A stretch of DNA of 64,000 bases from NCBI GenBank assembly GCA_046761045.1, contig JBHIFJ010000003.1, positions 4,835 through 68,834 of the forward strand, given 5' to 3'. The notes beneath the pieces were generated by a model. The model was not told the DNA's origin. It did no database searches and worked only from the letters and a program-made list of their open reading frames with translations. The position numbers and the translations under genes were made by a program. Source of the DNA: Thermoplasmata archaeon. Its GTDB lineage: Archaea; Thermoplasmatota; Thermoplasmata; RBG-16-68-12; JAGMCJ01. Of the stretch, positions 6,124 through 34,889 are shown in pieces (within the stretch, counting starts at the first letter, position 1; every line of letters begins with the position of its first letter).

Positions 6124-7116
6124 CTAGTCCAAGTCGATATCGGAAAGCCTTGGTGCAGGAACAGACTCCTCTGCCTTGATCCTGGACTTTATCGCGAGTC
6201 TGACGGCACCCCGGATGTTTCCCGTCTGTTTCACTCTTACTGCTCTTCTCAGGAGATCGATAGCACCGGTCGTGTCCCCTCCCTTCTTCTCAACATGCGT
6301 AATCTTGGATTGCGCCCTTCTTACGGCGTCCTGAAATATCTTCATCTGCAGGACCGTGGTCTTTGCGATCTCGGCGCTGAGATTGGCGGCCCTGGTCGCC
6401 GAGAGGTAGTCGCCGCTCTCGTATGACTCCCTTGCGCTGATGAGGACGACCTCTGCTCGGGCAAGATCGGAAGGCACCTTGGACAGCTCCTCGTCGATTC
6501 TCGTCGACGCGCTCTCAATTGCCGCAACGGCGGATTCCCTAACACCTTCGTCACCGACCCATATGTTGGATCCGCAATCCGGGCATGTGCTCAACTCGGG
6601 GCCGACCTCTCTGTTGCACATCGGACAAAGGAACTCGGAGATGGACTTCCTCTCGGTCTCGAAGTCCAGCCATATCGCGGTTCCACAGCTTGAGCAACGG
6701 TCCTCCAGGAGGCTGACGACCACCCCGCAGACCGGACATCTGTAGTTGACATCCCTCTCTCTTTCCCTGTTGACGTAGTCGATTCCGCAATGAGGGCACT
6801 TGGTTGCATTTGGATCCACGATCTCATCGCAGAAGGGACATCTGAACTCGATTTCCTTTTCCTTGACCTCGATTCTGGGAGAACCACACATCTCACAGGC
6901 CTGGCCCTCAAGAGGACTCCCGCATACGAGACACATCGCCGTCGAATCCTCGGTCGGTGCGGGCAGCGGTTCCACGCCAACCTGTGTGTGCTGTCTATCC
7001 TTCTTGGGCTGGGCAGAGGGAGCTCCGCAGATGGGACACATCTCTTCGTCCCCATAGACAGCAGTGCAGATTCTGCAGACCCTCATCCTAGATGGCCGCA
7101 CGAACAATGCAGACAC
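6124..7116 (-). CDS. Protein with five tandem zinc ribbons and a C-terminal helical domain (function unknown)
   Basis: Five zinc ribbons are present: CRIC..CPIC, CLVC..CEMC, CPFC..CPHC, CPVC..CSSC and CPMC..CPDC. A helical tail of about 130 aa follows. The track start at 7116 is GTG, and ATG 7086 (MRVCRIC) is an alternative. Confidence 0.7.
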   Translation of the reverse strand: MSALFVRPSRMRVCRICTAVYGDEEMCPICGAPSAQPKKDRQHTQVGVEPLPAPTEDSTAMCLVCGSPLEGQACEMCGSPRIEVKEKEIEFRCPFCDEIVDPNATKCPHCGIDYVNRERERDVNYRCPVCGVVVSLLEDRCSSCGTAIWLDFETERKSISEFLCPMCNREVGPELSTCPDCGSNIWVGDEGVRESAVAAIESASTRIDEELSKVPSDLARAEVVLISARESYESGDYLSATRAANLSAEIAKTTVLQMKIFQDAVRRAQSKITHVEKKGGDTTGAIDLLRRAVRVKQTGNIRGAVRLAIKSRIKAEESVPAPRLSDIDLD

Positions 7117-7221
7117 TTCATTGATAGAAAAGCTTTTGGTGGCATTATCAGACCACGGAATCAGGTGGGTTGGACATCACTTTTCAGACACTGGGGAGGC
7201 AGCGCAACGATTTTATATGAT

Positions 7222-7250
7222 ACAAAAAAACGTACAAATGAGATTAAATA
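7222..7250 (+). promoter_or_regulatory. Shared operator-plus-TATA element, copy 1 (promoter of the membrane wHTH regulator)
   Basis: The sequence ACAAAAAAACGTACAAATGAGATTAAATA ends 25 nt before ATG 7275. Its spacing is identical to the copies at 8352 and 11383. Confidence 0.65.
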
Positions 7251-7274: not shown

Positions 7275-8273
7275 ATGGTGAGAGTGAGGTTCCTATCACT
7301 CGTTCTTCTTTCATCCTTTCTTGCATTTGGATTCATGATGGCGGGGGCTTCGGCCGGAGAAATGTTTGGTCAGGTTGCCGACATCGGCATGATTGACCAG
7401 ACACAGCTTTTCTTGCGCGTTCGCTCGGATTTCGACATCATTGACAGTGGAAGCGTCATCCCCATCTACGTGACTGTTGTCGATCAGCACGACGTTCCCG
7501 TACCTGGTGTGACAGTGAAGGTCTCTGTTGTGTCGCCCTCTGGGGAACGAGTTGACTCGTTGTACGTCACGGATTCCAATGGCGAGGTGACATTCGACTT
7601 CACAGCATCCACTCAAGGTCAGGATGAGTACGCAATCGAGTTCTTCGCGGAGAAGGTCAAATGCATACCCGATAACGACCGCCTATCAATGGTCGTCTTC
7701 GCGCCCTCTCCCCCCTTAAGCATCGAGGACGGAACGGAAGCGGTCTCCGTGGGGATAGGTGTTCTCGTCGCTGCCGCCTTTCTCAGCACGGAAGCTGGCT
7801 GGTACGCGATATTCAGAACGCTGATATTCCCGCTGTACACTAGACTCAGGAAGGAGGAGATACTCGATCACTTCGTTCGTGGGCAGATTTACGGTTTCAT
7901 AATGTCTCATCCAGGCGAGCACTACAATGCCATCAGAGGGTATCTGAAGGTCACGAATGGAACGCTCTCACATCACCTCAGGACATTGGAGATGCAGGGC
8001 TTCATAAAGTCACATCGAGATGGCGTCTTGAAGAGGTTCTATCCCGTTGACATGAGGATCCCACGGGATAAGGGCATAAAGCTCAGTGATCTTCAGATGG
8101 GTATGGTGGAGGTGATAAGGAGCTCCGATGGCGCCACGCAGGCTGACATCTGCAAGGAGCTCGGAGTGAGCCAGCAATGCGTGAGCTACAACCTCCGCAA
8201 CCTCAGTCGGGAGGGCGTTCTGAGGTTCGAGAGGGATGGAAGACTGAAGAGATATTATCTAGTAGACAACTGA
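7275..8273 (+). CDS. Membrane-tethered transcription regulator: signal peptide, Ig-like (Big_1-like) ectodomain, TM helix, two winged-helix HTH domains
   Basis: The domain order is as follows. An N-terminal hydrophobic signal (LSLVLLSSFLAFGFMMAGASA) is followed by an Ig-like block (IPIYVTVVDQHDVPVPGVTVKVSVVSPSGE..DSNGEVTFDF). A TM segment (VSVGIGVLVAAAFL) precedes two ArsR/MarR-like wHTH units (GEHYNAIRGYLKVTNGTLSHHLRTLEMQGFI and ATQADICKELGVSQQCVSYNLRNLSREGVL). Confidence 0.7.
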   Translation: MVRVRFLSLVLLSSFLAFGFMMAGASAGEMFGQVADIGMIDQTQLFLRVRSDFDIIDSGSVIPIYVTVVDQHDVPVPGVTVKVSVVSPSGERVDSLYVTDSNGEVTFDFTASTQGQDEYAIEFFAEKVKCIPDNDRLSMVVFAPSPPLSIEDGTEAVSVGIGVLVAAAFLSTEAGWYAIFRTLIFPLYTRLRKEEILDHFVRGQIYGFIMSHPGEHYNAIRGYLKVTNGTLSHHLRTLEMQGFIKSHRDGVLKRFYPVDMRIPRDKGIKLSDLQMGMVEVIRSSDGATQADICKELGVSQQCVSYNLRNLSREGVLRFERDGRLKRYYLVDN

Positions 8274-8351
8274 TGCAGGCAAGCGGGCCCGTGGGCAGTC
8301 GTTGGGGCCCACCTCGTAGGCACGAGGTGTACCAATAAGTTTAAATATTAT

Positions 8352-8380
8352 ACAAAACACCGTACAAATCTGCTTTTATA
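8352..8380 (+). promoter_or_regulatory. Shared operator-plus-TATA element, copy 2 (promoter of the ABC binding-protein gene)
   Basis: The sequence is ACAAAACACCGTACAAATCTGCTTTTATA. It lies about 108 nt upstream of ATG 8488, which is preceded by a GGAGGA Shine-Dalgarno-like site. Confidence 0.65.
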
Positions 8381-8487
8381 CGCTATTCGAAATTCGTTCT
8401 ACAGTTGGGTGCGGCTGCTTGTTGAGTAGACGCGCCGCGTAGGACGACAACCTAGAATTTGTGAGTAACCTGCATGCAGGAGGAAAA

Positions 8488-11319
8488 ATGATGAACGGGA
8501 AGAAACTAAGTGGAGTATCCGTCATCCTTTCTCTTGTTCTCGTGAGTGTGTTGGTCGTGGGATTGTTCCCGATCGGCGCACTCGCAGGAGAAGAGACAAG
8601 GGCGGAGAATATCTTGAGGGTGGGCGCCCAAGACGACACCAAGACCAGAAATATCTTCGGTGCAACAGATGTGTGGACATCGAATGTCTTGACGCCTGTG
8701 TATGAAGGTGTGGGTCAGGTAGACCCAGACACCGAGGACCCGATTCCCTATATCTTGAAAGGGATCGATGCCGATGACGATGGTGTATTAGATTTGGATG
8801 AGTACGGGGTCTACGGGAAAGAGACAGGAACTGAGGGCCGTGAGGTCACTGCCTACTATGATATGAACTGGGTGTACTCTCATGACGGCGTCCAGATGAC
8901 CATGGATGACCTGCTTTTCGGATACCACATAAACGCGCTGGATCCCCTCACGATATCCCTGGACGTTCTGAAGGACAAGAACAATCTCCCCGGGTCAAAC
9001 TACTCAACGAGCCGGTGGCTGAACGTTTGGCCGGTCCAGGGCAGCTGGGATCCTGCAATACCACTCGGACCCGACACTAGCCTGACATTCGCCCTTCATT
9101 TCTCGCAAACGGCAGACTACGCCAACTTCGTGAAGTACACGCTCAACGGTGCAACGGTAATGCCAAGACATGTCTGGGAGGGAACGGGCAAGATCTGTTT
9201 GGAGGCCACCAATGGTGTCTGCACCTCTTGGAAGGAGAACATTCACGCGGACTTCGGCTATGCATACGATCCAGTGACGCACAATGGCGTCCCTGCCGCG
9301 GCGCAGAACTCTTTTTCATACAGTGCCGCCGAGGAGTGGTTGCCAAGCGATGATGAGGTCATTGGAACTGGAGCATTCGAGTTCGACATCTGGAATCCCG
9401 GTGTGTCTGCCTTGCTCAACAGGTTCGAGGACTACTTCGGCGATGCCCTTGCCTGTACCAAGGACCCTGTGTCAGGGAAGTGCGCTGGCGAGTTCTACAA
9501 GTACATGCACAAACCCTACATCGAGGGGATGCTGTTCAAGATCTACAAGACGGCACAGGCAGCCGTCTTTGCGCTTCAGGCGGGAGAGATTGACGTTGTC
9601 TCCTGGTCCGTTCCTCCTGAGTTCGTCGGTGGACTGTTGGTCGACCCGAACATAGGAATCTTCAACACCGCCGAGAAGGGTTTCTTCTATCTTAGCTACA
9701 ACATGAGGATGTCTCCATTCGGCTATCCCAACAATGATCCGTCGCTGGGTGACGATGGTTTGTACCTGAGGAAGGCAATGGCCCATGTCATCGACAAGAA
9801 GACGATCGTGACGACGCTGCTGCAGAACTTCGGCGTTGCCGGAGACCAGCCGGTTAGTCCCGCCTTCACAACATTCTACAACGGCTCGGTTCAGAAGTAT
9901 GATTTCGAGCTGGATGCCGCAAGGCAACTTCTGGATGACCACTATACGGTTGGCGGACTCAGTCTCGGCTACGGACCCAACGGATACAGGAACCTTCCGA
10001 CCATAGGAGACCGCCCTGTCGACATACTGTGTCCGCAGGCAGACTACGATCCGATCAGGGCATCAGCATGCAACATGATCGCGGCAAACGCGAGGGACGT
10101 TGGACTGAACTTCCACGCAAAGCTCCTCGCATTCGGAGAGATCGTGACCAGACTCGACAATCGCGACATGGAGATGTGGGTCCTAGGGTGGAGAATCGGC
10201 TCAGATCCTCCAGACTACTATCACGCCTTCTTCTATTCTGGCAATGCACCTGCGGGGCAGAACTATGAGGGATTCCAGAACGAGACCTTTGATAATCTGA
10301 TTACCGCCGCTCGGGCAACGCTAGACGCAGACGAGCAGGCTGAACTGATTAAGGAGTGCAGCGGAATCCTCATGGATGCCGTGCCCTACGATGTCCTCTA
10401 CTTCAGAACGAACATCGAGGCCTACAGGTCGGATAGGTACGACAATTGGACCGTCGGACCCGCCGGATCCATTTTCGGAGGGTCCTTCTGGTCCAGGATA
10501 GGAATCCATGCGCCCTCTCCGGACGCATTGACGATTTCACCGCCAGTGATGAAATCCGATGTTGCATCAGGTTCGACCGAGGACGTTGCGGCCACGGTGA
10601 GGGATCCTGACGGCAATGTGGTGGCAGGCGCTCCCGTTCAGATGACACTGAGCGGTTCCGGGGCCCTCGGCAACCTGAGCATTCCTGGTGGAGAAACCGG
10701 AACTACCGTCAATGGCGTGACGAACATCAACGGGAAGTTGGTCGCGAAGTACCTCGCACCCACGGTGGCGAACGAGACAGAAGTGTTTGTATCCGCGCAG
10801 GCACTAGAGTTTGGGGAATATCCCGCCTCAACTGTGCAGTTCTCCCGAGTGGATGTTCATCCCCCAGGCACCCAATTCCTATCGGTACTGGTGGAACCGA
10901 CCTTCTTCGCTATTGAAGAGGGCGGTACGATGACAATCGAGGTGACGGTTACCGACCAGGCCGGCGTGGCTGTGGATGGAGCGCTTGTCAATCTGGTGAC
11001 GATTCCGTCAGGACCAACGCTCGCTCCAGACTCCGGAACAACGATAGTTGGATCAATCGGTACGATTGTCTTCACTGCGCCTGAGTCACTTCCGGAAGGC
11101 CTGGAGGAGCAGCTGTACACACTGACGGTCACCGCCAACCTGACCGGATACCTCCCAGCCGAAGACTCGAAGGATATCACTATCCTAGCTCCGACTTTGG
11201 CTGGAGGAGGCGGCGGTTCCAGAACGGAAGTTCCGGCGCTCGATGTCGTCGCGACCGTGGCGGTCATCGCGCTCGTGACCGTGAGCCTTGCTGTATACCG
11301 TGGAACGAAGAGAAGGTAA
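8488..11319 (+). CDS. ABC transporter substrate-binding protein, family 5 (Opp/Dpp type), with C-terminal Ig-like domains and a TM anchor
   Basis: The start is set at ATG 8488 after GGAGGA (the track start 8461 is GTG). A signal-anchor precedes a family-5 SBP core (YKTAQAAVFALQAGEIDV, FFYLSYNMR, LRKAMAHVIDK, GWRIGSDPPDYY). Two Big_1-like repeats, a Gly-rich linker, a TM helix and a KRR tail follow. Confidence 0.85.
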   Translation: MMNGKKLSGVSVILSLVLVSVLVVGLFPIGALAGEETRAENILRVGAQDDTKTRNIFGATDVWTSNVLTPVYEGVGQVDPDTEDPIPYILKGIDADDDGVLDLDEYGVYGKETGTEGREVTAYYDMNWVYSHDGVQMTMDDLLFGYHINALDPLTISLDVLKDKNNLPGSNYSTSRWLNVWPVQGSWDPAIPLGPDTSLTFALHFSQTADYANFVKYTLNGATVMPRHVWEGTGKICLEATNGVCTSWKENIHADFGYAYDPVTHNGVPAAAQNSFSYSAAEEWLPSDDEVIGTGAFEFDIWNPGVSALLNRFEDYFGDALACTKDPVSGKCAGEFYKYMHKPYIEGMLFKIYKTAQAAVFALQAGEIDVVSWSVPPEFVGGLLVDPNIGIFNTAEKGFFYLSYNMRMSPFGYPNNDPSLGDDGLYLRKAMAHVIDKKTIVTTLLQNFGVAGDQPVSPAFTTFYNGSVQKYDFELDAARQLLDDHYTVGGLSLGYGPNGYRNLPTIGDRPVDILCPQADYDPIRASACNMIAANARDVGLNFHAKLLAFGEIVTRLDNRDMEMWVLGWRIGSDPPDYYHAFFYSGNAPAGQNYEGFQNETFDNLITAARATLDADEQAELIKECSGILMDAVPYDVLYFRTNIEAYRSDRYDNWTVGPAGSIFGGSFWSRIGIHAPSPDALTISPPVMKSDVASGSTEDVAATVRDPDGNVVAGAPVQMTLSGSGALGNLSIPGGETGTTVNGVTNINGKLVAKYLAPTVANETEVFVSAQALEFGEYPASTVQFSRVDVHPPGTQFLSVLVEPTFFAIEEGGTMTIEVTVTDQAGVAVDGALVNLVTIPSGPTLAPDSGTTIVGSIGTIVFTAPESLPEGLEEQLYTLTVTANLTGYLPAEDSKDITILAPTLAGGGGGSRTEVPALDVVATVAVIALVTVSLAVYRGTKRR
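9448..9627 (+). repeat. Near-identical 180-nt tract shared with the paralogous SBP gene (copy A)
   Basis: Hand alignment to the reverse complement of 33554..33733 gives 6 mismatches in 180 nt. A run of 93 nt (9535..9627) is identical. Confidence 0.85.
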
Positions 11320-11337
11320 ACCCTTCTCACCCTTCCC

Positions 11338-11346
11338 TTTATTTTT
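11338..11346 (+). terminator. Oligo-T tract after the binding-protein gene (candidate archaeal terminator)
   Basis: The tract TTTATTTTT lies 19 nt after the TAA stop at 11317-11319. It is directly upstream of the internal promoter copy 3. Confidence 0.35.
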
Positions 11347-11382
11347 GGGCCCCGCGACGAGCCATTCGTGAGCCCACTGGCT

Positions 11383-11411
11383 ACAAAATCCCGTACAAAT
11401 GACGTTAAATA
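11383..11411 (+). promoter_or_regulatory. Shared operator-plus-TATA element, copy 3 (internal promoter for the permease and ATPase genes)
   Basis: The sequence ACAAAATCCCGTACAAATGACGTTAAATA ends 33 nt before ATG 11445. Confidence 0.65.
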
Positions 11412-11444
11412 TTAGATGAAGTATTGTTTGGCTCGGTAGTTCTT

Positions 11445-13157
11445 ATGAGACTGAGAAGCTTCCTCATCAGGAGGGCCTTACACACAGTCATCACGCTTGT
11501 TGTCATCCTGGTCCTCCTGTTCATAATCTTCAGAATGATGCCCGGGGATCCGACGAGATTCTTCATTGAACCGGGACAGCCACCGGACGTCAGGGACCGG
11601 CTTCTTGTCGATTTTGGATTCTCCAAGTGGACGACCGCTCCCGGAGTCTATCGTGTGGCCTCCTTCGAGGCCTTCGATGATGGTGCATACGGGATCAGGG
11701 TGGAAGTCAATGCCACAGGCGTCATCGAACCCCCTGAGTTCCACAATGAAACCCTTTACTCTTCATACGTGAGGGCGAAGCGATACTTCCCGAGCGAGGA
11801 TCCCTTGGTGATTTGGAATGTAACGTTCTCCGAGGCTCCCACGGGCAACATCACCGTGGGCCAGACCTTTAACGTTACTTTCGATGTGAAGTCACCGGAG
11901 GGAATGACAAGGATAGTCTCAATTGACCTGGTTAGAAACGATGACCCCAACCAGACGGTGACGCTCAACCTCACAGGGTCAGGTGCTCAGATTGGCGCGA
12001 GCGGTCAGTGGGGGAGATACACCACGACAATGAGCGCCACTCAGCCTGGGTTCTATAGAATGACCCTGTCCGTCCATGATTCCACGCTCGGTCTCACAGA
12101 AGAAGCGGAGTACGGCTACGCGGTCAATCCAAGCGACATTCATCCCTTTCAGCTCGTTGTTGGTGAGGGCAACATTTTCACCTCACGCAATGTGTTCGCG
12201 GAATCGATCGGGGAGCTGACCCTCGCCGTCAAGGTGGAGGTCGAAGGCAAGCTCGTACCCATCGACGACTCTGGCTTGGTGGGATATGTCACCTCTCCGA
12301 CGGGAGAGGTCTCCACGCTCCAGCCCCCTGATCAGCTGATACACCCTCAGATAGTGGTTCCGCTTCCAGTGTGGGAGCAATTCTGGGAGTACTTCACTTC
12401 CATGATAACAGGTGATTTCGGGATTTCCTTCTTCTCCAAGCGACCTGTTTGGGTTGAGATTGCCCAAAGGGCGCCCGCCACAATCCTCCTCTTCGGGACC
12501 GCACTTGCTCTTTCTGCCCTTATCGGCATCGGCATCGGAGCGATACTGGCGTGGCGGCGGGGAACAAGCCTGGAGATGTCAGCCATCGTTGTCAGCCTGT
12601 TCTTCTACTCCATGCCACTGTTCTGGTTTGGATTGATTCTGCTCTGGGCATTCGGCTTCAGGCTTCAGTGGTTCCCATTGGGCGGGATAGGCGGTGTGGA
12701 CGAAGCCGGAAGGCCACTTGAAGGCCTTGCCTATATCGCCGACATCTTGTGGCACATGACACTTCCCCTGGTCACGCTTATGATGGTCAATCTGGCGGGA
12801 TACGTCCTCCTCATGCGAAACTCGATGCTTGAAGTTCTCGGAGAGGACTATGTCACAACCGCAAAGGCCAAGGGCCTGAGCGAGAGGACCGTGATGTACA
12901 AGCATGCGGCAAGGAACGCGCTTCTGCCCGTTGCCACGGTCATCGCCCTTGGCGTGGGTGGCGTCATCAGTGGTGGCGTTCTCACGGAGACGATATTCTC
13001 CTGGCCCGGAATGGGCTACTTCCTTGTAACCTCCACGATACAGCAGGACTACCCAGCGGTTCAGGGTACATTCTTCCTCCTGGCAATAATGACTGTGCTG
13101 GCGAACGTGGCTGCAGACGTGCTGTATGCCTACCTTGATCCAAGGGTGAGGTTGTAG
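11445..13157 (+). CDS. ABC permease, OppB/DppB type, with an extracytoplasmic insertion of about 245 aa
   Basis: The start MRLRSFLIRRALHTVITLVV is a typical OppB N-terminus (the track start 11424 is TTG). Conserved GDFGISF and EDYVTTAKAKGL (EAA-loop) blocks are present. A beta-rich, sequon-rich insert separates TM1 from the GDFG block. Confidence 0.85.
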   Translation: MRLRSFLIRRALHTVITLVVILVLLFIIFRMMPGDPTRFFIEPGQPPDVRDRLLVDFGFSKWTTAPGVYRVASFEAFDDGAYGIRVEVNATGVIEPPEFHNETLYSSYVRAKRYFPSEDPLVIWNVTFSEAPTGNITVGQTFNVTFDVKSPEGMTRIVSIDLVRNDDPNQTVTLNLTGSGAQIGASGQWGRYTTTMSATQPGFYRMTLSVHDSTLGLTEEAEYGYAVNPSDIHPFQLVVGEGNIFTSRNVFAESIGELTLAVKVEVEGKLVPIDDSGLVGYVTSPTGEVSTLQPPDQLIHPQIVVPLPVWEQFWEYFTSMITGDFGISFFSKRPVWVEIAQRAPATILLFGTALALSALIGIGIGAILAWRRGTSLEMSAIVVSLFFYSMPLFWFGLILLWAFGFRLQWFPLGGIGGVDEAGRPLEGLAYIADILWHMTLPLVTLMMVNLAGYVLLMRNSMLEVLGEDYVTTAKAKGLSERTVMYKHAARNALLPVATVIALGVGGVISGGVLTETIFSWPGMGYFLVTSTIQQDYPAVQGTFFLLAIMTVLANVAADVLYAYLDPRVRL

Positions 13158-13158
13158 C

Positions 13159-16100
13159 ATGGTGTCCAAGCAGAGACTTTATGAGAGGTTTCGAAGCTAC
13201 TACAAGGCCTTCAAGCAGAACTGGGATCTCTTCAAGGCGAGCAGGATTGGCCTTGTTGGTCTTGGAATCCTCGTGTTCTTCTTGGTGATAGCTCTAATCA
13301 CGCCGGCCCTGAATCTTCGCGATCCCATAAACTGGAGAGCCCCCGAAGAGGATCTGATTAGGGTCGACCAGTACTGGTACGTTGACACATCAACGGTGCT
13401 GTTCAAGGCTGGAGACCCCATCAACACATCCATTGCCTTCAGGCTCATACCAAAGGAACTAGACCCCTCTTCGGATCGAATCTATTTCGCCTCCGGAGAT
13501 AAGGTCATTGCCCTGCGCCCGTCAACAGGACAGTCCGTTTGGTATGTCGGCAGCGAGTCCGATAAGGTTTGCTGTTTCCAAGCCGATTCCACGGTGACCG
13601 CGGGGCCGGTCGTGGTCAACTACGGTTCGGTCGACAGCCCGGAGTTCGCAGACTGGGTCCTGTATTTCGGAACTGAGAGCGGGGAGTTCTACCAGCTGAA
13701 TGAGGCTGGAACCCTCGAGATCGACCTGACGAGACGATCCTCACACATACCAACGGGGGAGGATGTCTTCACGGCCACGCTCGATAGCACCGTAACGGGT
13801 ATTGCCGTTTTCGCGGACGAGACATCCAATCGAAGGGCATATGAGAGGGTTTTCGTCGGGACCGAGGAGGGGAAGGTGTATGCCTTTTCCAGCATTTGGA
13901 AGGACGACGAGACCTGGTTCTACAATGTCAGCTCCAACCAATGGATGAGAGCATATCCGCAGGAACGTCCCTTCCCTCAAGACCGGCACGTCATGGCATA
14001 CAGTCCAGAGTCAAAGAAGGTCCTCCTCGTCAGCGGAGACAACGGTGTTGGGTCTCAGAGCGCGGACCTGGTCCAGACGTGGATATTCAACCTCACCAGT
14101 AAGGAGTGGACTGAGTTGGACAACCTCTCGAGTGCGCCCCCTTACAGGCGAGAGAGCGCAATGGCCTACGTTCCAAGCTGGAATTCCGCACTGATGTACG
14201 GTGGGAAGCAGAAGACCTCAATACTGGATGATATGTGGCAGTTCAACTTCACTACTGAGAGATGGAATCAGGTGAACTATAGCGGCGCCCCCGATTGGAG
14301 AAGCGGGCACTCGATGGCATACAGCAGCGGTGACAACGCAGTCTACATGTTCGGGGGAAGAGTTACGGACCTTAACAAGACGTTGAAGCTGAACCTCACA
14401 AGTCTTACGTGGTCTGATGTGCCGACTAACTCAAGCGCAATCGCCCGGATGGGCACATCCATGATATATGATGCTGCGAAGAACAGACTCATCATATTCG
14501 GTGGCGAAGAGTACGTTGAGGACAACGATAACAATCAGACCAAACTCTTGAACCTCTCCTCAGGTCAGTGGGGATACATCGAGAGCCCTCAGGACCTGAC
14601 CCCGAGGGCATGGCAGTCCCTCGCCTATGACAGTGTCACGAACACTGCAATTCTCTTTGGCGGTCTCGGCACGAACCCCGAGCGAATACAGGAAACGTGG
14701 CAGTTGAACCTCACGACCGACAACTGGACTCAACTGAACACAACCCTCATGCCCTCTGCACGTCACGGTTCCTCAACGGTCTTCTTGGACAGCTCGGAGA
14801 TGTTCCTCTTCGGGGGAGATGACTATCAACCCAGCGAGCTTTGGAACATGACAGCGCCTCGAGGACCAATCGTGATGGCGGATCTTCCCTTGATGATCAA
14901 GAATTCTCCCATGTTCTCACCCGCCGTTGCCTACTCCTCGGGCGGGAGCTATTCTGGTGAATACCTTGTCTTCAATGCTGGAGGATATCTGGCCAATGTC
15001 TTCACAAGGAACGGGTCATATGTATGGACCGATGAGGCCGCTCACGGATACATCTTGAACGGCACAATACTGATAGGAGACGATTGGTCTACGGCGCCGA
15101 TAATCTCCCAGCCAGAAGGCTCTATTCCTCCCCTGATATTCCTGGGGACCAGCAACGGTTTCATACACGCATTCTATCCCGAGGACGGAGGGGTCTACGA
15201 ACCTTGGGTCACGATCCCTCCTGGAGAGGAGTTCCCGGACGGAAAGCAGAACCAGAACAACTCCATAATCGGGATACAGGTCGCGAGGACCATCCTGGAC
15301 ATAGATGGGGGCGTTCTGACAAGGCCAGAGCCGTATGGCTCATACGTTTACGTGGGCTCGAGCACGGGCACCTTCTATGCCATCCAAAGGGACAGAATCA
15401 GGGAGCTGCCCGCGGGCAGGGCGCGCGGAATCTTTGAGGTACCTGTGCAACCAAGGGAGCAGTTCGTGTTCAACACACCCCCCTACTATCTCGTCGGGTC
15501 AAGTATCGTTCTCATTGCTGGATACAATGACAACGGAACCGCGAACGACTGGACCGATGACAGGAGCACGATATATTCCTTCAACACAGATGGCACTGTC
15601 TCATGGAAGCAGACATTTGATGCACGGATTAATGGCGCACTCAATGTGTGGAGGGACGAGCCTGGTTCCCGCCATCTCCACAAGAGCGTCTTTGCCGGAA
15701 TGACCGACGGAACGATTCAGGTCTATTCATCAAGCGGTGAGTACCTCGCTCCATTGCCGCCCACGTGGATGTCCTCCGTCCCAAGCGGAAACACGTATTG
15801 GCTCGGCACGGACAACCAGGGGAGGGACCTGTACAGTCAATGGATGTGGGGCACCCGTGTGGCTTTGACGGTCGGGCTGTTGGCGGCTTTCTTCTCCATT
15901 TCCATTGGCACGATCATAGGGCTGGTCTCTGGATATACCGGGGGCAAGGTCGACTCCGTTTTGATGAGATTCACGGACGTGATACTTGTCCTTCCAGGTC
16001 TCCCGCTCGTCATCATCCTGGCCGCTGTCCTCGGTGCCGGGATATGGAACATCATTCTGGTCATAACAATAGTGGGTTGGCCGGGAACAGCCAGAGTCAT

Positions 16101-16467
16101 AAGGTCCGAGGTTCTCTCTTTGAAGGAAAGGCCGTTCATCGACTCAGCGAGAGTAACGGGGGCAAGTAACATCAGGATAATGTTCAAACACATTGCCCCA
16201 AACGTCCTCCCGCTCGCCTTCCTCTACATGACGTTCGCCGTGAGCGGTGCGATTCTCACCGAGGCGGCACTGAGCTTCATCGGCCTAGGGGATGTGAACA
16301 CACCCAGCTGGGGACAGATGTTGATGTTCATCCAACAGTCCAACGTCCTGGGTTCCTGGTGGTGGCTTCTCCCGCCGGGTCTGGGCATCACATTCCTCTC
16401 GCTCGCGTTCTATCTAATCGGCAGAGGATATGAGCAAATAGTCAATCCACGTCTGAGGCAGAGGTGA
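13159..16467 (+). CDS. ABC permease, OppC/DppC type, carrying an ectodomain of about 830 aa built from nested beta-propeller repeats
   Basis: The 1102-aa product has an N-terminal TM helix. The canonical OppC core appears only from about residue 870 (YWLGTDNQGRDLYSQWMWGTRVAL ... PFIDSARVTGAS ...). Between the two lie six Kelch-like blades flanked by PQQ/BamB-like blades. Confidence 0.85.
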   Translation: MVSKQRLYERFRSYYKAFKQNWDLFKASRIGLVGLGILVFFLVIALITPALNLRDPINWRAPEEDLIRVDQYWYVDTSTVLFKAGDPINTSIAFRLIPKELDPSSDRIYFASGDKVIALRPSTGQSVWYVGSESDKVCCFQADSTVTAGPVVVNYGSVDSPEFADWVLYFGTESGEFYQLNEAGTLEIDLTRRSSHIPTGEDVFTATLDSTVTGIAVFADETSNRRAYERVFVGTEEGKVYAFSSIWKDDETWFYNVSSNQWMRAYPQERPFPQDRHVMAYSPESKKVLLVSGDNGVGSQSADLVQTWIFNLTSKEWTELDNLSSAPPYRRESAMAYVPSWNSALMYGGKQKTSILDDMWQFNFTTERWNQVNYSGAPDWRSGHSMAYSSGDNAVYMFGGRVTDLNKTLKLNLTSLTWSDVPTNSSAIARMGTSMIYDAAKNRLIIFGGEEYVEDNDNNQTKLLNLSSGQWGYIESPQDLTPRAWQSLAYDSVTNTAILFGGLGTNPERIQETWQLNLTTDNWTQLNTTLMPSARHGSSTVFLDSSEMFLFGGDDYQPSELWNMTAPRGPIVMADLPLMIKNSPMFSPAVAYSSGGSYSGEYLVFNAGGYLANVFTRNGSYVWTDEAAHGYILNGTILIGDDWSTAPIISQPEGSIPPLIFLGTSNGFIHAFYPEDGGVYEPWVTIPPGEEFPDGKQNQNNSIIGIQVARTILDIDGGVLTRPEPYGSYVYVGSSTGTFYAIQRDRIRELPAGRARGIFEVPVQPREQFVFNTPPYYLVGSSIVLIAGYNDNGTANDWTDDRSTIYSFNTDGTVSWKQTFDARINGALNVWRDEPGSRHLHKSVFAGMTDGTIQVYSSSGEYLAPLPPTWMSSVPSGNTYWLGTDNQGRDLYSQWMWGTRVALTVGLLAAFFSISIGTIIGLVSGYTGGKVDSVLMRFTDVILVLPGLPLVIILAAVLGAGIWNIILVITIVGWPGTARVIRSEVLSLKERPFIDSARVTGASNIRIMFKHIAPNVLPLAFLYMTFAVSGAILTEAALSFIGLGDVNTPSWGQMLMFIQQSNVLGSWWWLLPPGLGITFLSLAFYLIGRGYEQIVNPRLRQR

Positions 16468-16477
16468 TCCGGTGGCG

Positions 16478-17743
16478 ATGCTAGAAGTGAACAATCTCAA
16501 AACCTACTTCAGAATATTGAAGGGGACCGTGTACGCTGTTGACGGTGTCACGTTCCATCTCGATCGCGGTGAAACCATGGGCCTCGTGGGAGAATCTGGA
16601 TGCGGGAAGACAACGACCGCGTTTGCCATCACGAGGCTCCTTCCGTCCAACGGTAGAATCGTTGGAGGCGAGATCATCTTCGATGGCACTCTCATTGGTC
16701 GGGCCGACTTCCCCACCGAGCTCGCGGAGGTCCTGAAGGAACCACTGTGGCTCGAGGAGACCAAGGCACTCGTTGAAAGAAAGATGAACAGGCTCGCCAT
16801 CTCAGAGGGGGATCCCTCAACTGTGATGGAGTCAAGGATGCTGCTGGAGCAGGAGAGGGCATGTGTCGAGGAGGTCAATGCCATCCTCAACGATGCCAGC
16901 CTCTCAAAGGAGGAAATGAAGGGAGAGCTCGAGGACCTCGTTGATGGAGAACTCAATAGCTTCCTGGCAAGGCGGCGGAGGAGGCGAATCGAGCGGGAAA
17001 TCGAGGAGAAGATGATGGATATCAGGTGGAGCAAGATATCGATGATCTTCCAGGGAGCCATGAACGCCTTCAATCCGGTCTACAAGGTCGGTGATCAGAT
17101 CGTGGAGGCCCTGCTACGCCACGAGGACATGACGAAGGATGAGGCAAAGGAGAGGGTCCTTGAGCTGTTCGACCTCGTGGGTCTCGACCGCTCGCGAGTC
17201 ACAGGCTATCCGCACGAGTTCAGCGGCGGCATGAGGCAGAGGGCTATCATTGCCATGTCGCTTGCCTGCAACCCGCAGCTCATAATAGCCGACGAGCCAA
17301 CGACCGCGCTCGACGTCATCATGCAGGACAGAATACTCGGGGAGATCAGAGACCTTCAGAAAGAGTTCCACATTGCTATGATGATAATCACACACGACAT
17401 CTCGGTCGTCGCAGAGGTTTCTGAGACGATAGGAATCATGTATGCGGGGAAGCTCTTCGAGTTCGGCGACATAGTCTCCATCTTCGAGAGGTCTGCGAAC
17501 CCCTATACCATCGGGCTGACGGGGGCCTTCCCCAGCATCAAGGGCGAGCGAAAGAGGCTGATATCCATCCCCGGCTCCCCGCCGGACCTCTCAGCGCCAC
17601 CGCACGGATGCAGATTCCATCCCAGATGCAAATTCGCACAGGACATATGCAGGAAGGAGGAACCCAAGAGCGTCGAAGTGGCTAAGAACCACTGGTCCAT
17701 GTGCCATTTCGCCAGGGAGATATATTCGGGCCAACTCGCCTGA
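16478..17743 (+). CDS. ABC ATPase, OppD type, with a helical insertion of about 95 aa
   Basis: The Walker A motif (GESGCGKT), signature (FSGGMRQR), Walker B (LIIADEPTTALD) and the oligopeptide C-terminal Cys/His motif (HGCRFHPRC..C) are all present. A charged insert lies between IIFDG and ISMIFQG. Confidence 0.85.
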   Translation: MLEVNNLKTYFRILKGTVYAVDGVTFHLDRGETMGLVGESGCGKTTTAFAITRLLPSNGRIVGGEIIFDGTLIGRADFPTELAEVLKEPLWLEETKALVERKMNRLAISEGDPSTVMESRMLLEQERACVEEVNAILNDASLSKEEMKGELEDLVDGELNSFLARRRRRRIEREIEEKMMDIRWSKISMIFQGAMNAFNPVYKVGDQIVEALLRHEDMTKDEAKERVLELFDLVGLDRSRVTGYPHEFSGGMRQRAIIAMSLACNPQLIIADEPTTALDVIMQDRILGEIRDLQKEFHIAMMIITHDISVVAEVSETIGIMYAGKLFEFGDIVSIFERSANPYTIGLTGAFPSIKGERKRLISIPGSPPDLSAPPHGCRFHPRCKFAQDICRKEEPKSVEVAKNHWSMCHFAREIYSGQLA

Positions 17744-17752
17744 GGTGATAAG

Positions 17753-18958
17753 TTGGAAGCGTCAGAGGAAGCAGTTGCCGCGGAAATGGATGAGGACGTT
17801 GTCTATAGGGTCACGAATCTCAAGAAGCACTTCCCGATAAAGTCGGGATTCCTTGCCTCACTCTTTGGAAGGGAGAAGGTCGTTCACGCTGTGAATGGAG
17901 TTGATTTCTCGATCGGTGAAGGCGAGATTCTAGGGATGGTTGGCGAGTCCGGTTGCGGCAAGACAACATGCGGACGTCTCCTCGTCAGACTCGAGACGCC
18001 CACAGAGGGCCACATGTACTTCACCGGCAAGGACATCGCCGCGCTCAAGGGAAGGGAGCTGAAGGTGTTTCGCAGGGATGTCCAGATGGTCTTCCAGGAC
18101 CCATACGAATCGCTGAATCCGAGATTGACAGTCTTCGCAACCGTTGCGGAGCCCCTGGTCGTTCATGGTGTGGGAGAGTCCTCGGATGAGAGGGTGGACA
18201 TGGTGGCAAAGGCGCTCCAGTATGCGGAGCTGAAACCGCCTGAGGAGTTCATGTACAGGTATCCTCACGAGTTGAGCGGGGGGCAGAGGCAGAGGGTCGC
18301 GATTGCAAGAACCCTCGTGCTCCGGCCGAAGTTCATTGTGGCGGATGAGCCCGTGAGCATGCTCGACGTTTCCATCCGGGCTGGAATAATGAATCTCATG
18401 CTGAGCCTGAGAGAGCAGTACAAGATCCCGTTCCTCTTCATATCCCACGATGTGTCCGTGACCAGATATATGAGCCATAGAATCGCTGTCATGTATCTCG
18501 GGTTCATAGTGGAGCTCGGCTCATCGGAGGATGTCATCAAGGACCCGATGCATCCGTATACGGAGGCTCTGCTGTCGGCGGTTCCCGTTCCGGATCCAAA
18601 GGCCAAGCACGGAAGGGTGAAGATTAGGGGGGATCTTCCCAGCCCCATAGACCTCCCGCCCGGGTGCGTGTTCCATCCCAGATGCCTGTACCGTAAGGAC
18701 ATATGCGACAAGGAGCTGCCGCAGTTCAAGGAGGTGAGGCCTGGTCACTTCGCCCTGTGCCATTTCGCTGGGGAGCTTCCGATTAAGAGGCCTGATGACG
18801 AGGAGGTATTCGAGGAAGGTGTCTGCGACCTCTGCAAGGCCACAATCAAGAAGGGAATGCCGTTCGCGCGTTGCGACTGCAACAAGCTGTACCACGAATC
18901 TTGCGCCGGACAGCTCGGCGAATGCCCCGTGTGCAAGAAGGGTCTCCAGGTGGAGTGA
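17753..18958 (+). CDS. ABC ATPase, OppF type, fused to a C-terminal C4HC3 zinc finger
   Basis: The Walker A motif (GESGCGKT), signature (LSGGQRQR), Walker B (FIVADEPVSMLD) and PGCVFHPRC..C are present. The tail is C-x2-C-x12-C-x-C-x4-H-x2-C-x6-C-x2-C. The start is uncertain (TTG 17753 or ATG 17786). Confidence 0.85.
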   Translation: MEASEEAVAAEMDEDVVYRVTNLKKHFPIKSGFLASLFGREKVVHAVNGVDFSIGEGEILGMVGESGCGKTTCGRLLVRLETPTEGHMYFTGKDIAALKGRELKVFRRDVQMVFQDPYESLNPRLTVFATVAEPLVVHGVGESSDERVDMVAKALQYAELKPPEEFMYRYPHELSGGQRQRVAIARTLVLRPKFIVADEPVSMLDVSIRAGIMNLMLSLREQYKIPFLFISHDVSVTRYMSHRIAVMYLGFIVELGSSEDVIKDPMHPYTEALLSAVPVPDPKAKHGRVKIRGDLPSPIDLPPGCVFHPRCLYRKDICDKELPQFKEVRPGHFALCHFAGELPIKRPDDEEVFEEGVCDLCKATIKKGMPFARCDCNKLYHESCAGQLGECPVCKKGLQVE

Positions 18959-19545
18959 TGAACAGGTATGCACTGGTTATCGGGGTAGCCTTCGTCTTGG
19001 TGACAGTCTTCTCGGCCACCACTCTTGCCTTGACCGTAGACACGTACCAGGCCTTCACAGACGCCCGCATCAAGCTCACTCCATCGGCGGGCAACATCTA
19101 CATCAAGGAGGTGCGAATCCCTCTGATAAACTCCCTGGACACGGATGTTCGCGTGACGATTCTCGTGGAGGTGAACAACCCTACGAGGCTGGACGTCTGG
19201 GTGTACAACATCGAGTTCCAGCTCTGGATGCTCAACGAGAGCACGATGGGCAACATTGGCAACCCTCAGGCGATGGAGCAATCGTACGTGTGGACGGGTG
19301 GCTTCTTCCGGTATGATGACCCTGACTACTTCGTTCCGTCGGGGGGGAACGCCACGCTCCTATCCTCGCTCACTGTGACATCCAGGCCAAAGCTCGAGGC
19401 TCTCAACAAGACAGACGCACAGGGGAGGTACTATCCTTTCATAAGGGCAGACATGAGATACAATGTCGTGGACCTGGACATTGCCGTTCCGGTCCATGGA
19501 ATTTACTTCTTCAGCACGACAGGGGTGGAGCCCTATGAGGGTTAG
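18958..19545 (+). CDS. N-terminally anchored beta-rich surface protein (LEA_2/NDR1-like fold is possible)
   Basis: The ATG overlaps the OppF stop codon (TGATG). The N-terminus MNRYALVIGVAFVLVTVFSATTLA is a signal-anchor, and the rest is beta-rich with N-x-S/T sequons. The track ORF starts earlier, at 18871. Confidence 0.55.
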   Translation: MNRYALVIGVAFVLVTVFSATTLALTVDTYQAFTDARIKLTPSAGNIYIKEVRIPLINSLDTDVRVTILVEVNNPTRLDVWVYNIEFQLWMLNESTMGNIGNPQAMEQSYVWTGGFFRYDDPDYFVPSGGNATLLSSLTVTSRPKLEALNKTDAQGRYYPFIRADMRYNVVDLDIAVPVHGIYFFSTTGVEPYEG

Positions 19546-20083
19546 CAGGAAGTCCGTCTACAGCGGGTTGCTCGCGGTTCTGTGGACCTTCTGCGGAGCG
19601 ATTACTATGGCGAGCTTCTTCTTCATCTCCTTCTTCCCCGAGTATTCGCCCTTTGCCGAGGGGGAGATCGGGTTCAGCGTTATCTTTGCACCGCTCGCGG
19701 TCAGCTTCATGGTGGGTCTCCTCGCCAACGAGCACAATGTGTCCGTGATGATTCTTCTTTCGATATCGATAGTCTTCATTGCAGCCGTCATTGCGTTCCT
19801 GGCGGTGTACGCCCCCATTCTGTCCGGAATCGTGAGCAATGCCACCTATTTGCCGTCGACTGACGAGCAGAGGATGAGCATGGTCTTCTCCACGCTGTTT
19901 ATCATTCCCCTGACGGTGATAGGCACGGTTCTCGGAAAGGCCGTCGGCGGAGTGGTTCTACCCTCCGAGGAGGAGCTGATCGAGAGGAAGCTCCTGATCG
20001 AGCGGACGAGGGAGTGGCACGAGCGGATGGCGAGAAGGGATCCGGAGTCGGAGAAGTCGGAATCCACCTCCCCAGAGGAATAG
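19535..20083 (+). CDS. Polytopic membrane protein with an acidic C-terminal tail (function unknown)
   Basis: ATG 19535 overlaps the end of the previous gene by 11 nt. About four hydrophobic helices are followed by a charged tail (EEELIERKLLIERTREWHERMARRDPESEKSES). Confidence 0.55.
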   Translation: MRVSRKSVYSGLLAVLWTFCGAITMASFFFISFFPEYSPFAEGEIGFSVIFAPLAVSFMVGLLANEHNVSVMILLSISIVFIAAVIAFLAVYAPILSGIVSNATYLPSTDEQRMSMVFSTLFIIPLTVIGTVLGKAVGGVVLPSEEELIERKLLIERTREWHERMARRDPESEKSESTSPEE

Positions 20084-20125: not shown

Positions 20126-20198
20126 GGGCCTGTGGTCTAGTGGTTATGACGTCACCCTTACAAGGTGGAGGTCGGCGGTTCAAATCCGCCCAGGCCCA
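20126..20198 (+). tRNA. tRNA-Val (anticodon UAC)
   Basis: The sequence GGGCCTG/CAGGCCC forms a 7-bp acceptor stem. The anticodon stem is TCACC/GGTGG with loop CTTACAA, the T-arm is GGCGG-TTCAAAT-CCGCC, and the discriminator is A. There is no encoded CCA. Confidence 0.9.
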
Positions 20199-27851: not shown

Positions 27852-27859
27852 ATCCTTCT

Positions 27860-28729
27860 TCAGAACTGTCCCACCCCCTCGTTCTTCTTGATTCTTCTCT
27901 CTGTCCTAAGGAAGACGGTGTAGCCGATGAGCGGCAACACTGCCGCAAACACCAGGAGGACCGCCAGATCCAAGTACCATGTTCCGAAGAAGTATGCCAC
28001 ATCCAGGAGTGAGGCCCTCACACCGTTCGTCATCCACGTTGGCGGGAAGCTCAACGCTACGTAGCGAAGGAATGGCGGGAAAACGGTGATCGGGAAGAAG
28101 ATGCCCATGAAGAACGCCACAACCCATTGCATCACCTGTATGAGCGAATCGGCCTCCTTCACCTTGAGGATGAGGGCACCGAACGCGAAGCTTATCCCCC
28201 AGAGCGGGATGATTCCTATGCCGATGAACGCTAGTGCCAGCAAGAGATCGCCCTGGAATATGTTGATTTGGAAGATGAGTGAGCCAATCAGCATTGCGAA
28301 TGTAAAGGCCATGAGGGACCTGATCAGCGCATACAGGGTGACTCCGGAAAGGACCTCGGCCCTTTTGGCGGGAGAAGCATAGACGGACTCGAGCGTACCC
28401 GTCTCCATCTCCCTTCTTATCCAGTACCCAACGAGCCACAGCATCAGTGTTACCACTATGAACGTGTTCGCACCGATTAGCATGTACAGTTCGTAGTTCT
28501 CCGTTCCTGTCGTGTTCTCGAAATTCTGAGCCGCGGCCTGACCCGCAATTGCAACTCCGAGAAGTATGGGAAGAGCAGCCAGGATCACGGGGAGAAACAT
28601 GTCGAACAATATGGCGCCCTTGTAACGGAGCACTATCTTGAACCTCGCGATCAGGACAGTCTTCGTAATCCCGAGGGATGCCCTCATGGAGAGTTTCGAG
28701 AGGCCCAAGCCCCTGTGAACGGTCTTCAT
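27860..28729 (-). CDS. ABC-2 type exporter permease
   Basis: The 289-aa product has six hydrophobic segments. Its start overlaps the ATPase gene stop by 4 nt. Confidence 0.75.
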   Translation of the reverse strand: MKTVHRGLGLSKLSMRASLGITKTVLIARFKIVLRYKGAILFDMFLPVILAALPILLGVAIAGQAAAQNFENTTGTENYELYMLIGANTFIVVTLMLWLVGYWIRREMETGTLESVYASPAKRAEVLSGVTLYALIRSLMAFTFAMLIGSLIFQINIFQGDLLLALAFIGIGIIPLWGISFAFGALILKVKEADSLIQVMQWVVAFFMGIFFPITVFPPFLRYVALSFPPTWMTNGVRASLLDVAYFFGTWYLDLAVLLVFAAVLPLIGYTVFLRTERRIKKNEGVGQF

Positions 28730-29760: not shown

Positions 29761-29783
29761 TGGCAACCGACTAGGATGAGCAC

Positions 29784-34705: not shown

Positions 34706-34736
34706 GGTTCTCCCCGTCCATTCCAAAGCCCTAGGG

Positions 34737-34766: not shown

Positions 34767-34889
34767 ATCACCGCTTCCATGCCAGAGCGACATTCCGTGT
34801 TCCAATTTGCCAAATAGCAGTGACCATGGGGGTTTTCTGTACAGATTCTCAACCTTGAACACCAAAGCCAGACACGGTGCTTGAGGTAG

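Follow-up and report, generated by a model that had tools for sequence, protein, structure and literature searches.

An Opp/Dpp-type importer locus with large extracellular inserts and a membrane-anchored regulator in a Thermoplasmata archaeon

Few membrane machines are understood as well as the type I ATP-binding cassette (ABC) importers, whose permeases as a rule carry next to nothing on their outer face. We analysed a 64-kb stretch of DNA from a Thermoplasmata archaeon (contig JBHIFJ010000003.1; the window, in whose numbering all positions are given), which carries an operon of seven consecutive plus-strand open reading frames (ORFs) at 8461-20083. Pfam and NCBIfam searches identify the first five as homologues of a substrate-binding protein (SBP), OppB, OppC, OppD, and OppF, and these are followed by two genes, g6 and g7. 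We conclude that the locus is a real and previously undescribed variant of the Opp/Dpp importer, the core of which is itself a known member of the PepT family. Its genes and sites are as follows.

7221-7239, plus strand: putative operator copy 1, TACAAAAAAACGTACAAAT, 36 nucleotides (nt) before the regulator ATG and ending 5 nt upstream of the TATA-like ATTAAATA.
7275-8273, plus strand: membrane-anchored regulator, 332 amino acids (aa), the eighth gene of the set, just upstream of the SBP gene.
8351-8369, plus strand: putative operator copy 2, TACAAAACACCGTACAAAT, upstream of the SBP gene, with TATA-like boxes on both sides.
8488-11319, plus strand: SBP, 943 aa from an ATG that follows GGAGG; the ORF opens at a GTG at 8461.
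11382-11400, plus strand: putative operator copy 3, TACAAAATCCCGTACAAAT, with the TATA-like TTAAATATTA 4 nt and the OppB ATG 45 nt downstream.
11445-13157, plus strand: OppB/DppB-type permease, 570 aa; first transmembrane helix (TM1) and scoop-motif helices, insert at aa 57-306, BPD_transp_1 transmembrane domain (TMD).
13159-16467, plus strand: OppC/DppC-type permease, 1102 aa; OppC_N TM1, predicted double propeller, BPD_transp_1 TMD at aa 871-1102.
16472-17743, plus strand: OppD/DppD-type ATPase, 423 aa; insert between Walker A and the Q-loop; Cys4 motif C380/C386/C393/C411.
17753-18958, plus strand: OppF/DppF-type ATPase, 401 aa; Cys4 motif C305/C311/C318/C336; finger at aa ~355-397 (nt ~18815-18943).
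18958-19545, plus strand: g6, 195 aa; N-terminal transmembrane (TM) anchor and β-rich ectodomain of ~170 aa.
19535-20083, plus strand: g7, 182 aa; four TM helices; charged tail in the cytoplasm, containing a conserved T-R-x-W-H-E helix.
31862-34726, minus strand: paralogous SBP, 954 aa, 62% identical to the SBP and with the same Ig-Ig-TM tail.
34749-34767, minus strand: putative operator copy 4, TACAAAAAGATATACCAAA, with 2 mismatches, 23 nt upstream of the paralogous SBP gene.

An initial annotation, made from the sequence of the window, had proposed five transporter genes and two small membrane proteins, an extra module on every canonical subunit, and tight linkage between the genes. The ORFs and profile matches bear out the gene set, and all of the listed modules were found. 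The linkage is as described: the OppB stop codon (TAG) is separated from the OppC ATG by 1 nt, and the OppF TGA and g6 ATG overlap as TGATG. In addition, the g7 ATG at 19535 overlaps the 3' end of g6 by 11 nt. The extent of the unit needed correction. Its seven genes stand, but the unit begins earlier, at the regulator gene with operator copy 1, and the second SBP gene on the minus strand also belongs to it.

We considered whether the long ORFs might be chimeras created by mis-joined reads or by gene calling, a danger that the initial annotation had itself raised, and found nothing in favour of this. The same architecture is present in six contigs of GTDB genomes, the nearest being Thermoplasmata metagenome-assembled genomes with 69-77% OppC identity, and in the contigs for homologues P0015, P0017, P0022, P0024, P0077, and P0113. 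We detected 491 relatives; of these, 80 metagenome loci were retrieved, and the architecture recurs in them. The domain order and the insert boundaries are repeated in dozens of independent assemblies (NCBI, JGI, ENA, and Logan), down to ~42% OppC identity. The window's own OppB sequence is present on 4 contigs, and GC content is even along the operon. This recurrence in independent assemblies, together with the even GC content, excludes assembly chimerism, and we regard the probability of an artefact as negligible. The survey of related genomes that had been suggested also shows that the modules co-occur rather than being randomly distributed.

The components expected of a functional importer are all recognisable. 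BPD_transp_1 (PF00528) matches the two permeases with 145 and 101.9 bits; BPD_transp_1_N scores above its cut-off in OppB, and OppC_N falls just below its own in OppC (20.6 vs 23.9 bits; E 4.1e-4). The top NCBIfam matches are OppB/DppB/NikB-type and OppC-type models, at scores below the equivalog cut-offs, and EAA-like segments are readable in the permeases (AKAKGLSE... and DSARVTGAS...). By Foldseek the OppB TMD matches E. coli DppB/OppB and the structure 8z1y_A (E 5e-10). Both ATPases consist of ABC_tran and an oligo_HPY C-terminal domain, and their catalytic motifs are intact (GESGCGKTT, SGG(M/Q)RQR, ADEP, and (T/S)HD). In both, a C-x5-C-x6-C-x17-C motif has the spacing of the cluster ligands of E. 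coli DppD/DppF and is invariant in 7/7 orthologues, so that both are predicted to carry a [4Fe-4S]-type C-terminal site. The predicted importer core, consisting of a tethered SBP, a retained docking motif, and two catalytically complete ATPases, is thus complete. The initial annotation had seen here a large surface machine rather than a plain peptide transporter; with the scoop, EAA loops, Walker A and B, signature, H-loop, and both Cys4 motifs in place, the system is still best read as an importer.

The SBP is composed of a signal peptide, an enlarged SBP_bac_5 core, two Big_1 immunoglobulin (Ig)-like domains, a Gly linker, and a C-terminal TM helix (aa 918-936 of the 943-aa form). The core matches SBP_bac_5 (PF00496) with E 9.6e-39 and 134 bits (cut-off 32.4), and Big_1 matches the tail in two stretches. 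Its nearest solved relatives are DppA proteins (E 5e-18 for the best PDB match), than which the core is ~130 aa larger. The two Ig-like domains and the TM anchor are therefore present as first described, but the anchor should not have been counted as non-canonical, for it is the norm among archaeal Opp-class binding proteins (PMC3387779). Those of Sulfolobus and Aeropyrum likewise combine an N-terminal signal peptide with a C-terminal TM anchor; their stalk is a glycosylated Ser/Thr stretch, whereas that of the window SBP is made of the two Big_1 domains and the Gly linker (PMC3387779). The paralogous SBP gene is unlinked, lying 12 kb away from the main locus with its own operator copy, and its product probably serves the same translocator as a further binding protein. 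In the related loci L010 and L011, an extra SBP of 1135-1236 aa adjoins the operon.

Right after the SBP stop codon lies an oligo-T tract, CCCTTTATTTTTGG, at 11320-11345, and operator copy 3 and a TATA-like box then follow. Together these features suggest partial termination after the SBP gene and a separate promoter for OppB through g7, an arrangement that would allow the SBP to be made in excess.

The permeases depart most from the canonical plan. In OppB, the distance between the PGDP and GDFG motifs is 290 aa compared with 44 aa in a canonical relative, which gives an insert of ~245 aa and confirms the ectodomain first noticed. An AlphaFold model built with a 31-sequence alignment shows the ectodomain (predicted local distance difference test scores mostly 75-90) as all-β and divided into two tandem β-sandwich domains of the Ig/CARDB-like kind. 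Foldseek matches it to Ig-like β-sandwiches, namely CARDB, NPC2, Wzt-CBD, and C3 MG domains. The insert starts right after two short helices that match the DppB scoop motif in position, and the region comprising TM1 and the scoop is conserved, with 68% identity. In DppB, the scoop motif enters the cleft of DppA (PMC12136057).

In OppC, the first TM helix is at aa 30-48 and the next at aa 905-923, leaving an ectodomain of ~855 aa (the first estimate was ~830), within which the double β-propeller insert accounts for ~820 aa. The initial call of β-propeller repeats is supported by strong Kelch matches (PF24681, 172.5 bits against a cut-off of 50; PF24981, 151.4 bits). An alignment of 22 homologues divides the insert into a scaffold (aa 55-247 and 567-870) and a Kelch region (aa 248-566; nt 13900-14856) that interrupts it. 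The model contains six four-stranded Kelch blades and about seven or eight scaffold blades, is all-β, and by Foldseek resembles KLHDC2, Keap1, and LZTR1 with TM scores of 0.65-0.79 and double-propeller proteins over ~850 columns. For the scaffold, the PQQ_2 score of the window protein is 22.7 bits (cut-off 27.6), and the relatives L087 and L084, which lack the head, score 61.7 and 64.1 bits, above that cut-off. From the alignment, the model, and the scores of these head-less relatives, we conclude that the predicted ectodomain is a Kelch propeller nested in a loop of a BamB/PQQ-like propeller, with the Kelch part acting as an exchangeable head.

The exchange is visible among homologues. At the insertion point of the head, P0019-P0022, P0025, and P0026 have no insert (at most a short residual stretch), and in P0024 a module of ~48-aa repeats takes the place of Kelch. 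In P0023 (1052 aa), the segment at aa 222-478 matches Glyco_hydro_32N (36.2 bits; cut-off 22.1) and Glyco_hydro_130 (33.2 bits; cut-off 26), and this head is predicted to be a five-bladed propeller of the glycoside hydrolase (GH)-like kind, carried on an ABC permease.

The ectodomains are also rich in N-x-S/T sequons. There are 14 in the Kelch head (319 aa) and 7 in the OppB ectodomain, counts that none of 500 shuffles reached in either case, compared with zero in OppD and zero in OppF. In most of the six Kelch blades, a sequon falls at an equivalent point of the blade (W-x-[FL]-N-[LFV]-[ST]...W), and that of the second blade is kept in most Kelch-bearing homologues. This distribution fits the predicted topology and a glycosylated outer surface, and the periodicity suggests that the Kelch head may be N-glycosylated at regular intervals.

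On the cytoplasmic side, both ATPases have additions. The distance from Walker A to the Q-loop of OppD is 141 aa as opposed to 57-63 aa in canonical relatives, indicating an insert of ~80-85 aa. The charged insert described initially is therefore present (40% D/E/K/R), but its length had been put too high, at ~95 aa. The whole non-canonical stretch, comprising the insert and a replaced canonical linker, spans approximately aa 77-183 (nt 16700-17020), and the insert is probably helical. It ends, after a strongly acidic helix, in RRRRRR (aa ~160-166; nt 16950-16970), for which lipid head groups, nucleic acid, or an acidic protein surface are possible partners. R169 and R171 of OppD are invariant in 7 orthologues.

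OppF ends in C-x2-C-x12-C-x-C-x4-H-x2-C-x6-C-x2-C. The C4HC3 zinc finger proposed for it initially is upheld by seven orthologues, in which all eight ligand positions are kept as C or H (C358, C361, C/H374, C376, H381, C/H384, C391, and C394). The profiles closest to this tail are zf-C3H2C3 (PF17122; 21.3 bits, cut-off 27, E 2.8e-4) and Prok-RING_1 (PF14446; 18.1 bits, cut-off 29.1, E 2.6e-3). The eight-ligand C4HC3 order and spacings are compatible with the cross-brace fold of the binuclear treble-clef RING and PHD fingers, from which the OppF tail differs in its very short last loop (6 aa) and in being part of an ABC ATPase. Around the locus we saw no genes for a ubiquitin-like system.

Neither g6 nor g7 matches a Pfam family, and profile searches against PDB sequences returned nothing below E 0.08. 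The g6 protein is positionally conserved in 49 of 94 surveyed sequences, most of the others being cut before that point, and its family is narrow, with 18 representatives among 1.84 billion sequences (phmmer). Three of the 18 are giant repeat proteins (two with the CHU_C signal of the type IX secretion system, T9SS) that repeatedly match g6 residues 107-172 and have unrelated Pfam content; we judged these matches to be compositional. We also rejected assignment of g6 to the LEA_2/WHy-like domains, which was obtained with just 1/7 orthologues (E 0.035), the conserved N-P motif alone being reminiscent of that family. Since g6 and g7 are translationally coupled and strictly co-occurring, we take them to be candidate accessory membrane subunits.

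The eighth gene encodes a protein with a signal/TM segment (aa 6-24), a Big_1 Ig-like ectodomain, a TM helix (aa 153-171), and two winged-helix domains, HTH_HVO_0163_N at 202-259 (43.8 bits; cut-off 31) and MarR_2 at 270-323 (38 bits; cut-off 27). It lies directly upstream of the SBP gene in L007, L009-L013, and most related loci whose contig reaches that far. We found 212 homologues; among the 120 matches listed, length is similar (a few are partial) and the Pfam domains are the same. The Ig domain of the regulator is 29% identical to the second, membrane-proximal Ig domain of the SBP (E 7e-6).

The putative operator is a direct repeat, TACAAAA-N5-TACAAAT, with half-sites 12 bp apart. The window contains three perfect copies and one copy with two mismatches, against 0.09 expected, and the three copies of the main locus stop 4-5 nt short of a TATA-like box. 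Related loci totalling ~1 Mb gave 26 matches with at most two mismatches, all on the operon strand and located just upstream of SBP (20), the regulator (5), or OppB (1); on the opposite strand of the same ~1 Mb, the pattern has no match. With its two tandem winged helix-turn-helix (wHTH) domains, the regulator is the obvious candidate for binding a direct repeat, and we infer that it does so.

To compare module content across loci, we measured motif-to-motif distances in all of them in place of ORF lengths, which over-extend starts in GC-rich loci. Operons were clustered at 95% identity of the OppD core, giving 52 non-redundant clusters, and a neighbour-joining tree was calculated. A propeller ectodomain is present in every complete OppC surveyed, and the OppB insert in all loci with a measurable OppB loop except L082. 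The remaining modules distribute in five tiers.

Tier 1, the simplest (L082, L084, L087, L088, L092): a BamB-like propeller on OppC and a canonical OppD.
Tier 2 (L069, L077, L080, L083): a large OppB insert and g6 added, with g7 in L069 and L080; OppD canonical.
Tier 3 (44 of the 52 clusters): the OppD insert added.
Tier 4 (one large clade): the zinc finger added.
Tier 5 (subclades within tier 4): a head added, be it Kelch, the ~48-aa repeat module, or the GH-like propeller.

The tier 1 loci that reach past OppF (L084, L087, and L092) have no g6 or g7, and L087 and L088 already have a variant C4HC3 finger on OppF. Of the tier 2 loci, just L069 and L080 extend upstream, and both have the regulator and operator. 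L080 apparently belongs to Ca. Proteinoplasmatales SG8-5. The neighbour-joining tree suggests a stepwise accretion of modules, and the window carries the maximal version of the family. The extras are 29-50% identical where the cores are 69-86% identical, and they keep their size and position.

We think it probable that the locus encodes a self-regulated, eight-gene importer regulon of the Opp/Dpp (PepT-type, type I) class, with a scaffold outside the cell that is glycosylated and a regulatory platform in the cytoplasm. According to the mechanism that we propose, a membrane-tethered binding protein of cluster C, present as two paralogues, would capture a ligand of the oligopeptide class outside the cell and dock on OppB/OppC via the retained OppB scoop motif, and the two ATPases, with their [4Fe-4S]-type C-terminal domains, would drive uptake. 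The OppB β-sandwiches and the OppC double propeller would surround the docking site with an extracellular crown. Lacking an outer membrane, the cell could use this crown to keep its two tethered SBPs close and correctly oriented; the head, which varies, would probably bind substrate beforehand. The helical insert of OppD, the RING-like finger of OppF, and the tail of g7 would make up a cytoplasmic interaction platform. The regulator would bind the operator found before all four transcription units and so couple expression to the state of the transporter, which it may sense through its Ig domain, so like the SBP stalk.

The substrate is most likely peptide. The best matches are to Dpp/Opp systems, an S8 peptidase is a neighbour in one relative, and Ca. 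Proteinoplasmatales catabolise protein, as isotope probing has shown (PMC9123169). The peptidase gene, at 17315-21210 of L013, starts ~530 nt after g7 and encodes a 2631-aa Peptidase_S8 protein with β-propeller and Ig-like domains; outside the cell, this protease may work in partnership with a peptide importer.

Several observations weigh against an integrated regulon of this kind. Relatives exist that lack the Kelch head, the zinc finger, the OppD insert, or g6/g7, and since most of the extras are absent from at least one relative, the basic machine does not depend on any of these. The matches of the OppF tail to RING-like families fall below the Pfam gathering cut-offs. Position over the B recognition element (BRE) makes the operator compatible with activation and repression alike. 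As regards substrate, oligosaccharides are a frequent cargo of archaeal Opp-class systems, and the head of one relative is GH-like. That g6, g7, and the regulator assemble with the transporter is suggested by conserved gene order and translational coupling, and the initial statement that all parts form a single assembly overstated what can be drawn from operon structure alone. Finally, the zinc finger and the g7 tail occur together in 20 clusters of the group that has the OppD insert and are both absent from 9, with none discordant, but we do not count this as independent evidence of a contact: the pattern maps to two clades in the neighbour-joining tree and is broken outside the group, where L069 and L080 have the g7 tail without the finger and L087 and L088 have the finger without g7. 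It is a weak hint.

A bolder version of the same idea, which we hold to be doubtful, is that the eight products form one sensory-transport machine. In that version, the glycosylated crown with its lineage-specific head would capture polymer-derived substrate and place the tethered SBPs, and the Ig domain of the regulator would compete for the SBP docking site. In the cytoplasm, the two wHTH domains would be held or released by the helical arm of OppD together with the finger of OppF and the tail of g7, so that transport flux would directly set transcription from the TACAAAA-N5-TACAAAT promoters. If true, it would amount to a "trigger transporter" of archaea that has its own platform for capture at the surface.

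The same features could also belong to an ordinary peptide importer with lineage-specific decorations that share no joint mechanism, the ectodomains being glycocalyx or envelope filler of an archaeon poor in cell wall, the insert in the nucleotide-binding domain (NBD) and the zinc finger being neutral or stabilising, and g6/g7 being merely co-transcribed. The extras do evolve two to three times faster than the cores, most of them are absent from some relative that retains the rest, the heavy load of sequons suggests a surface-coat role, and the Opp ATPases of wall-less Mycoplasma have large inserts at the same NBD site (NCBIfam MMSYN1_0167 alignment). However, the extras retain their size, position, and fold even where their carrier proteins are down to 42-50% identical, in assemblies from soil, sediment, and the subsurface, and the eight zinc ligands are all conserved. 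Moreover, g6 and g7 are translationally coupled to OppF, with g6 narrow and confined to these operons, and a dedicated regulator and operator travel with the set. We therefore consider decoration without a shared function to be unlikely, if worth keeping in mind.

A different question is what the importer carries and whether it imports at all. Many archaeal and Thermotoga Opp-class systems import sugars. The locus could encode an importer of oligosaccharides or glycans in which the propeller head is a lectin or a tethered glycosidase that captures or trims polymer at the cell surface and passes the products on to the SBP, a single-membrane analogue of a utilisome. The two glycoside hydrolase matches that replace Kelch in P0023 point this way, as do a weak match of the Kelch region to sialic-acid mutarotase (NanM-type) models and a weak resemblance of the OppB insert to CBM_4_9 and the Wzt carbohydrate-binding domain. 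The carbohydrate-binding module (CBM) and NanM matches are far below cut-offs, though, and the GH-like character of the P0023 head is a prediction. The best SBP, permease, and ATPase matches are to Dpp/Opp peptide systems. The conserved neighbourhood contains no glycoside hydrolases, as opposed to the large S8 peptidase that adjoins in one relative, and the related order is an experimentally shown protein degrader (PMC9123169). A glycan importer thus seems rather improbable to us. Still further from the canonical function, ATP hydrolysis might move the ectodomains, as in MacB, LolCDE, or FtsEX, or serve adhesion, with transport not the primary role. The ~1100 ectodomain residues on two TMDs would suit such a surface machine, and an exchangeable head suggests varied external partners. 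Against this stand the type I importer fold of the TMDs, the dedicated full-length SBP, and the conserved scoop motif and EAA loops; the known mechanotransmitters have, to our knowledge, a different TMD fold and no SBP. We judge this very improbable, and the self-regulated importer regulon is the reading that we carry forward.

Compared with E. coli DppABCDF/OppBCDF and M. tuberculosis Opp/Dpp (PDB 8z1y, 8z21; PMC12136057), the window system shares the five-component set, the OppB/DppB TMD fold, the scoop region after TM1, and, in both ATPases, the oligo_HPY C-terminal domain and the C-x5-C-x6-C-x17-C spacing. It exceeds both in its SBP tethered by Ig-Ig-TM, in the inserts of OppB (~245 aa), OppC (~820 aa), and OppD (~80-85 aa), in the RING-like tail of OppF, in the two membrane proteins, and in having a membrane-anchored regulator with its own operator. 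The Opp system of Mycoplasma (JCVI-syn; NCBIfam MMSYN1_0165-0168) likewise has enlarged OppB, OppD, and OppF subunits, and its OppD model (561 positions) aligns to the window OppD on both sides of the insertion between Walker A and the Q-loop. It is bacterial, however, its inserts are not visibly homologous to those described here, and it has no propeller OppC, zinc finger, g6, or g7.

For the extracellular inserts, the best precedent is MalFGK2-MalE. The P2 periplasmic loop of MalF grips MalE; being a β-rich, Ig-like loop insert that contacts the binding protein, it is comparable to the OppB insert and perhaps to the OppC propellers. It belongs to a different importer family, though, lies in the TM3-TM4 loop, and comprises ~180 aa without a propeller, as against ~245 and 820 aa in the window permeases. 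The folds of the OppC propellers are like those of BamB/PQQ-type and Kelch propellers, the Kelch part having the six four-stranded blades of the KLHDC2, Keap1, and LZTR1 kind; what differs is that one is nested in a loop of the other and that both lie between TM1 and TM2 of an ABC permease. ToxR, CadC with LysP, and MalK-MalT are precedents for membrane-integrated or transporter-linked control. As in these, the window regulator is a membrane-anchored DNA-binding protein with an extracytoplasmic domain, found beside a transporter. Compared with ToxR and CadC its topology is reversed, with the ectodomain first and two wHTH domains at the C-terminus, and it is archaeal and has an ectodomain homologous to the SBP stalk.

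The literature on archaeal Opp transporters that we searched contains no description of a propeller OppC or of nested propellers with exchangeable heads, nor did we find in the searched literature a RING-like finger on an ABC ATPase, the g6/g7 pair, or a regulator with such an operator. Searches combining Thermoplasmata, oligopeptide ABC transporters, and kelch returned unrelated papers, and none on an archaeal transporter mentions kelch. The single HVO_0163 paper deals with another subject than this system. Public annotations of the family's proteins read "ABC transporter permease subunit", "kelch repeat-containing protein", or "MarR family regulator" alone.

More than 1000 folded ectodomain residues on two permeases, including a nested propeller, set this family apart, and it is widespread in sediment and soil Thermoplasmata. 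Since a related order degrades detrital protein, the importer may be a main route by which peptide carbon enters these archaea. The natural series of versions from simple to complex lends itself to asking what the add-ons do, and the swapping of propeller heads at one hot spot hints at specialisation for substrate or partner. The regulator, with its predicted DNA site, is a rare candidate for membrane-anchored control of transcription in archaea.

The surroundings of the locus contain several other genes. A tRNA-Val(TAC) gene lies at 20126-20198 on the plus strand, 43 nt past the g7 stop codon, and a second tRNA-Val gene (CAC) at 40474-40546. An unrelated exporter operon of the ABC-2 type, encoding one ATPase and two ABC2_membrane proteins, occupies 26526-29766 on the minus strand. 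Upstream of the regulator and divergent from it, a gene at 6124-7116 (minus strand) encodes a 330-aa protein with multiple double zinc ribbons (DZR); this neighbour is also found upstream of the locus in L010 and L011, where the extra SBP gene separates it from the regulator. We considered the conserved neighbours (the DZR zinc-ribbon protein, Metallophos, YjeF/Carb_kinase, MatE, and Nuo) as functional partners and judged their conservation to reflect synteny, not function. In L011, a complete 1.99-Mb genome (CP070767.1), the operon ends inside OppC at 11697-13208, the called product of 357 aa terminating within the Kelch region and unrelated genes following; this broken operon is either a decayed copy or a rearrangement.

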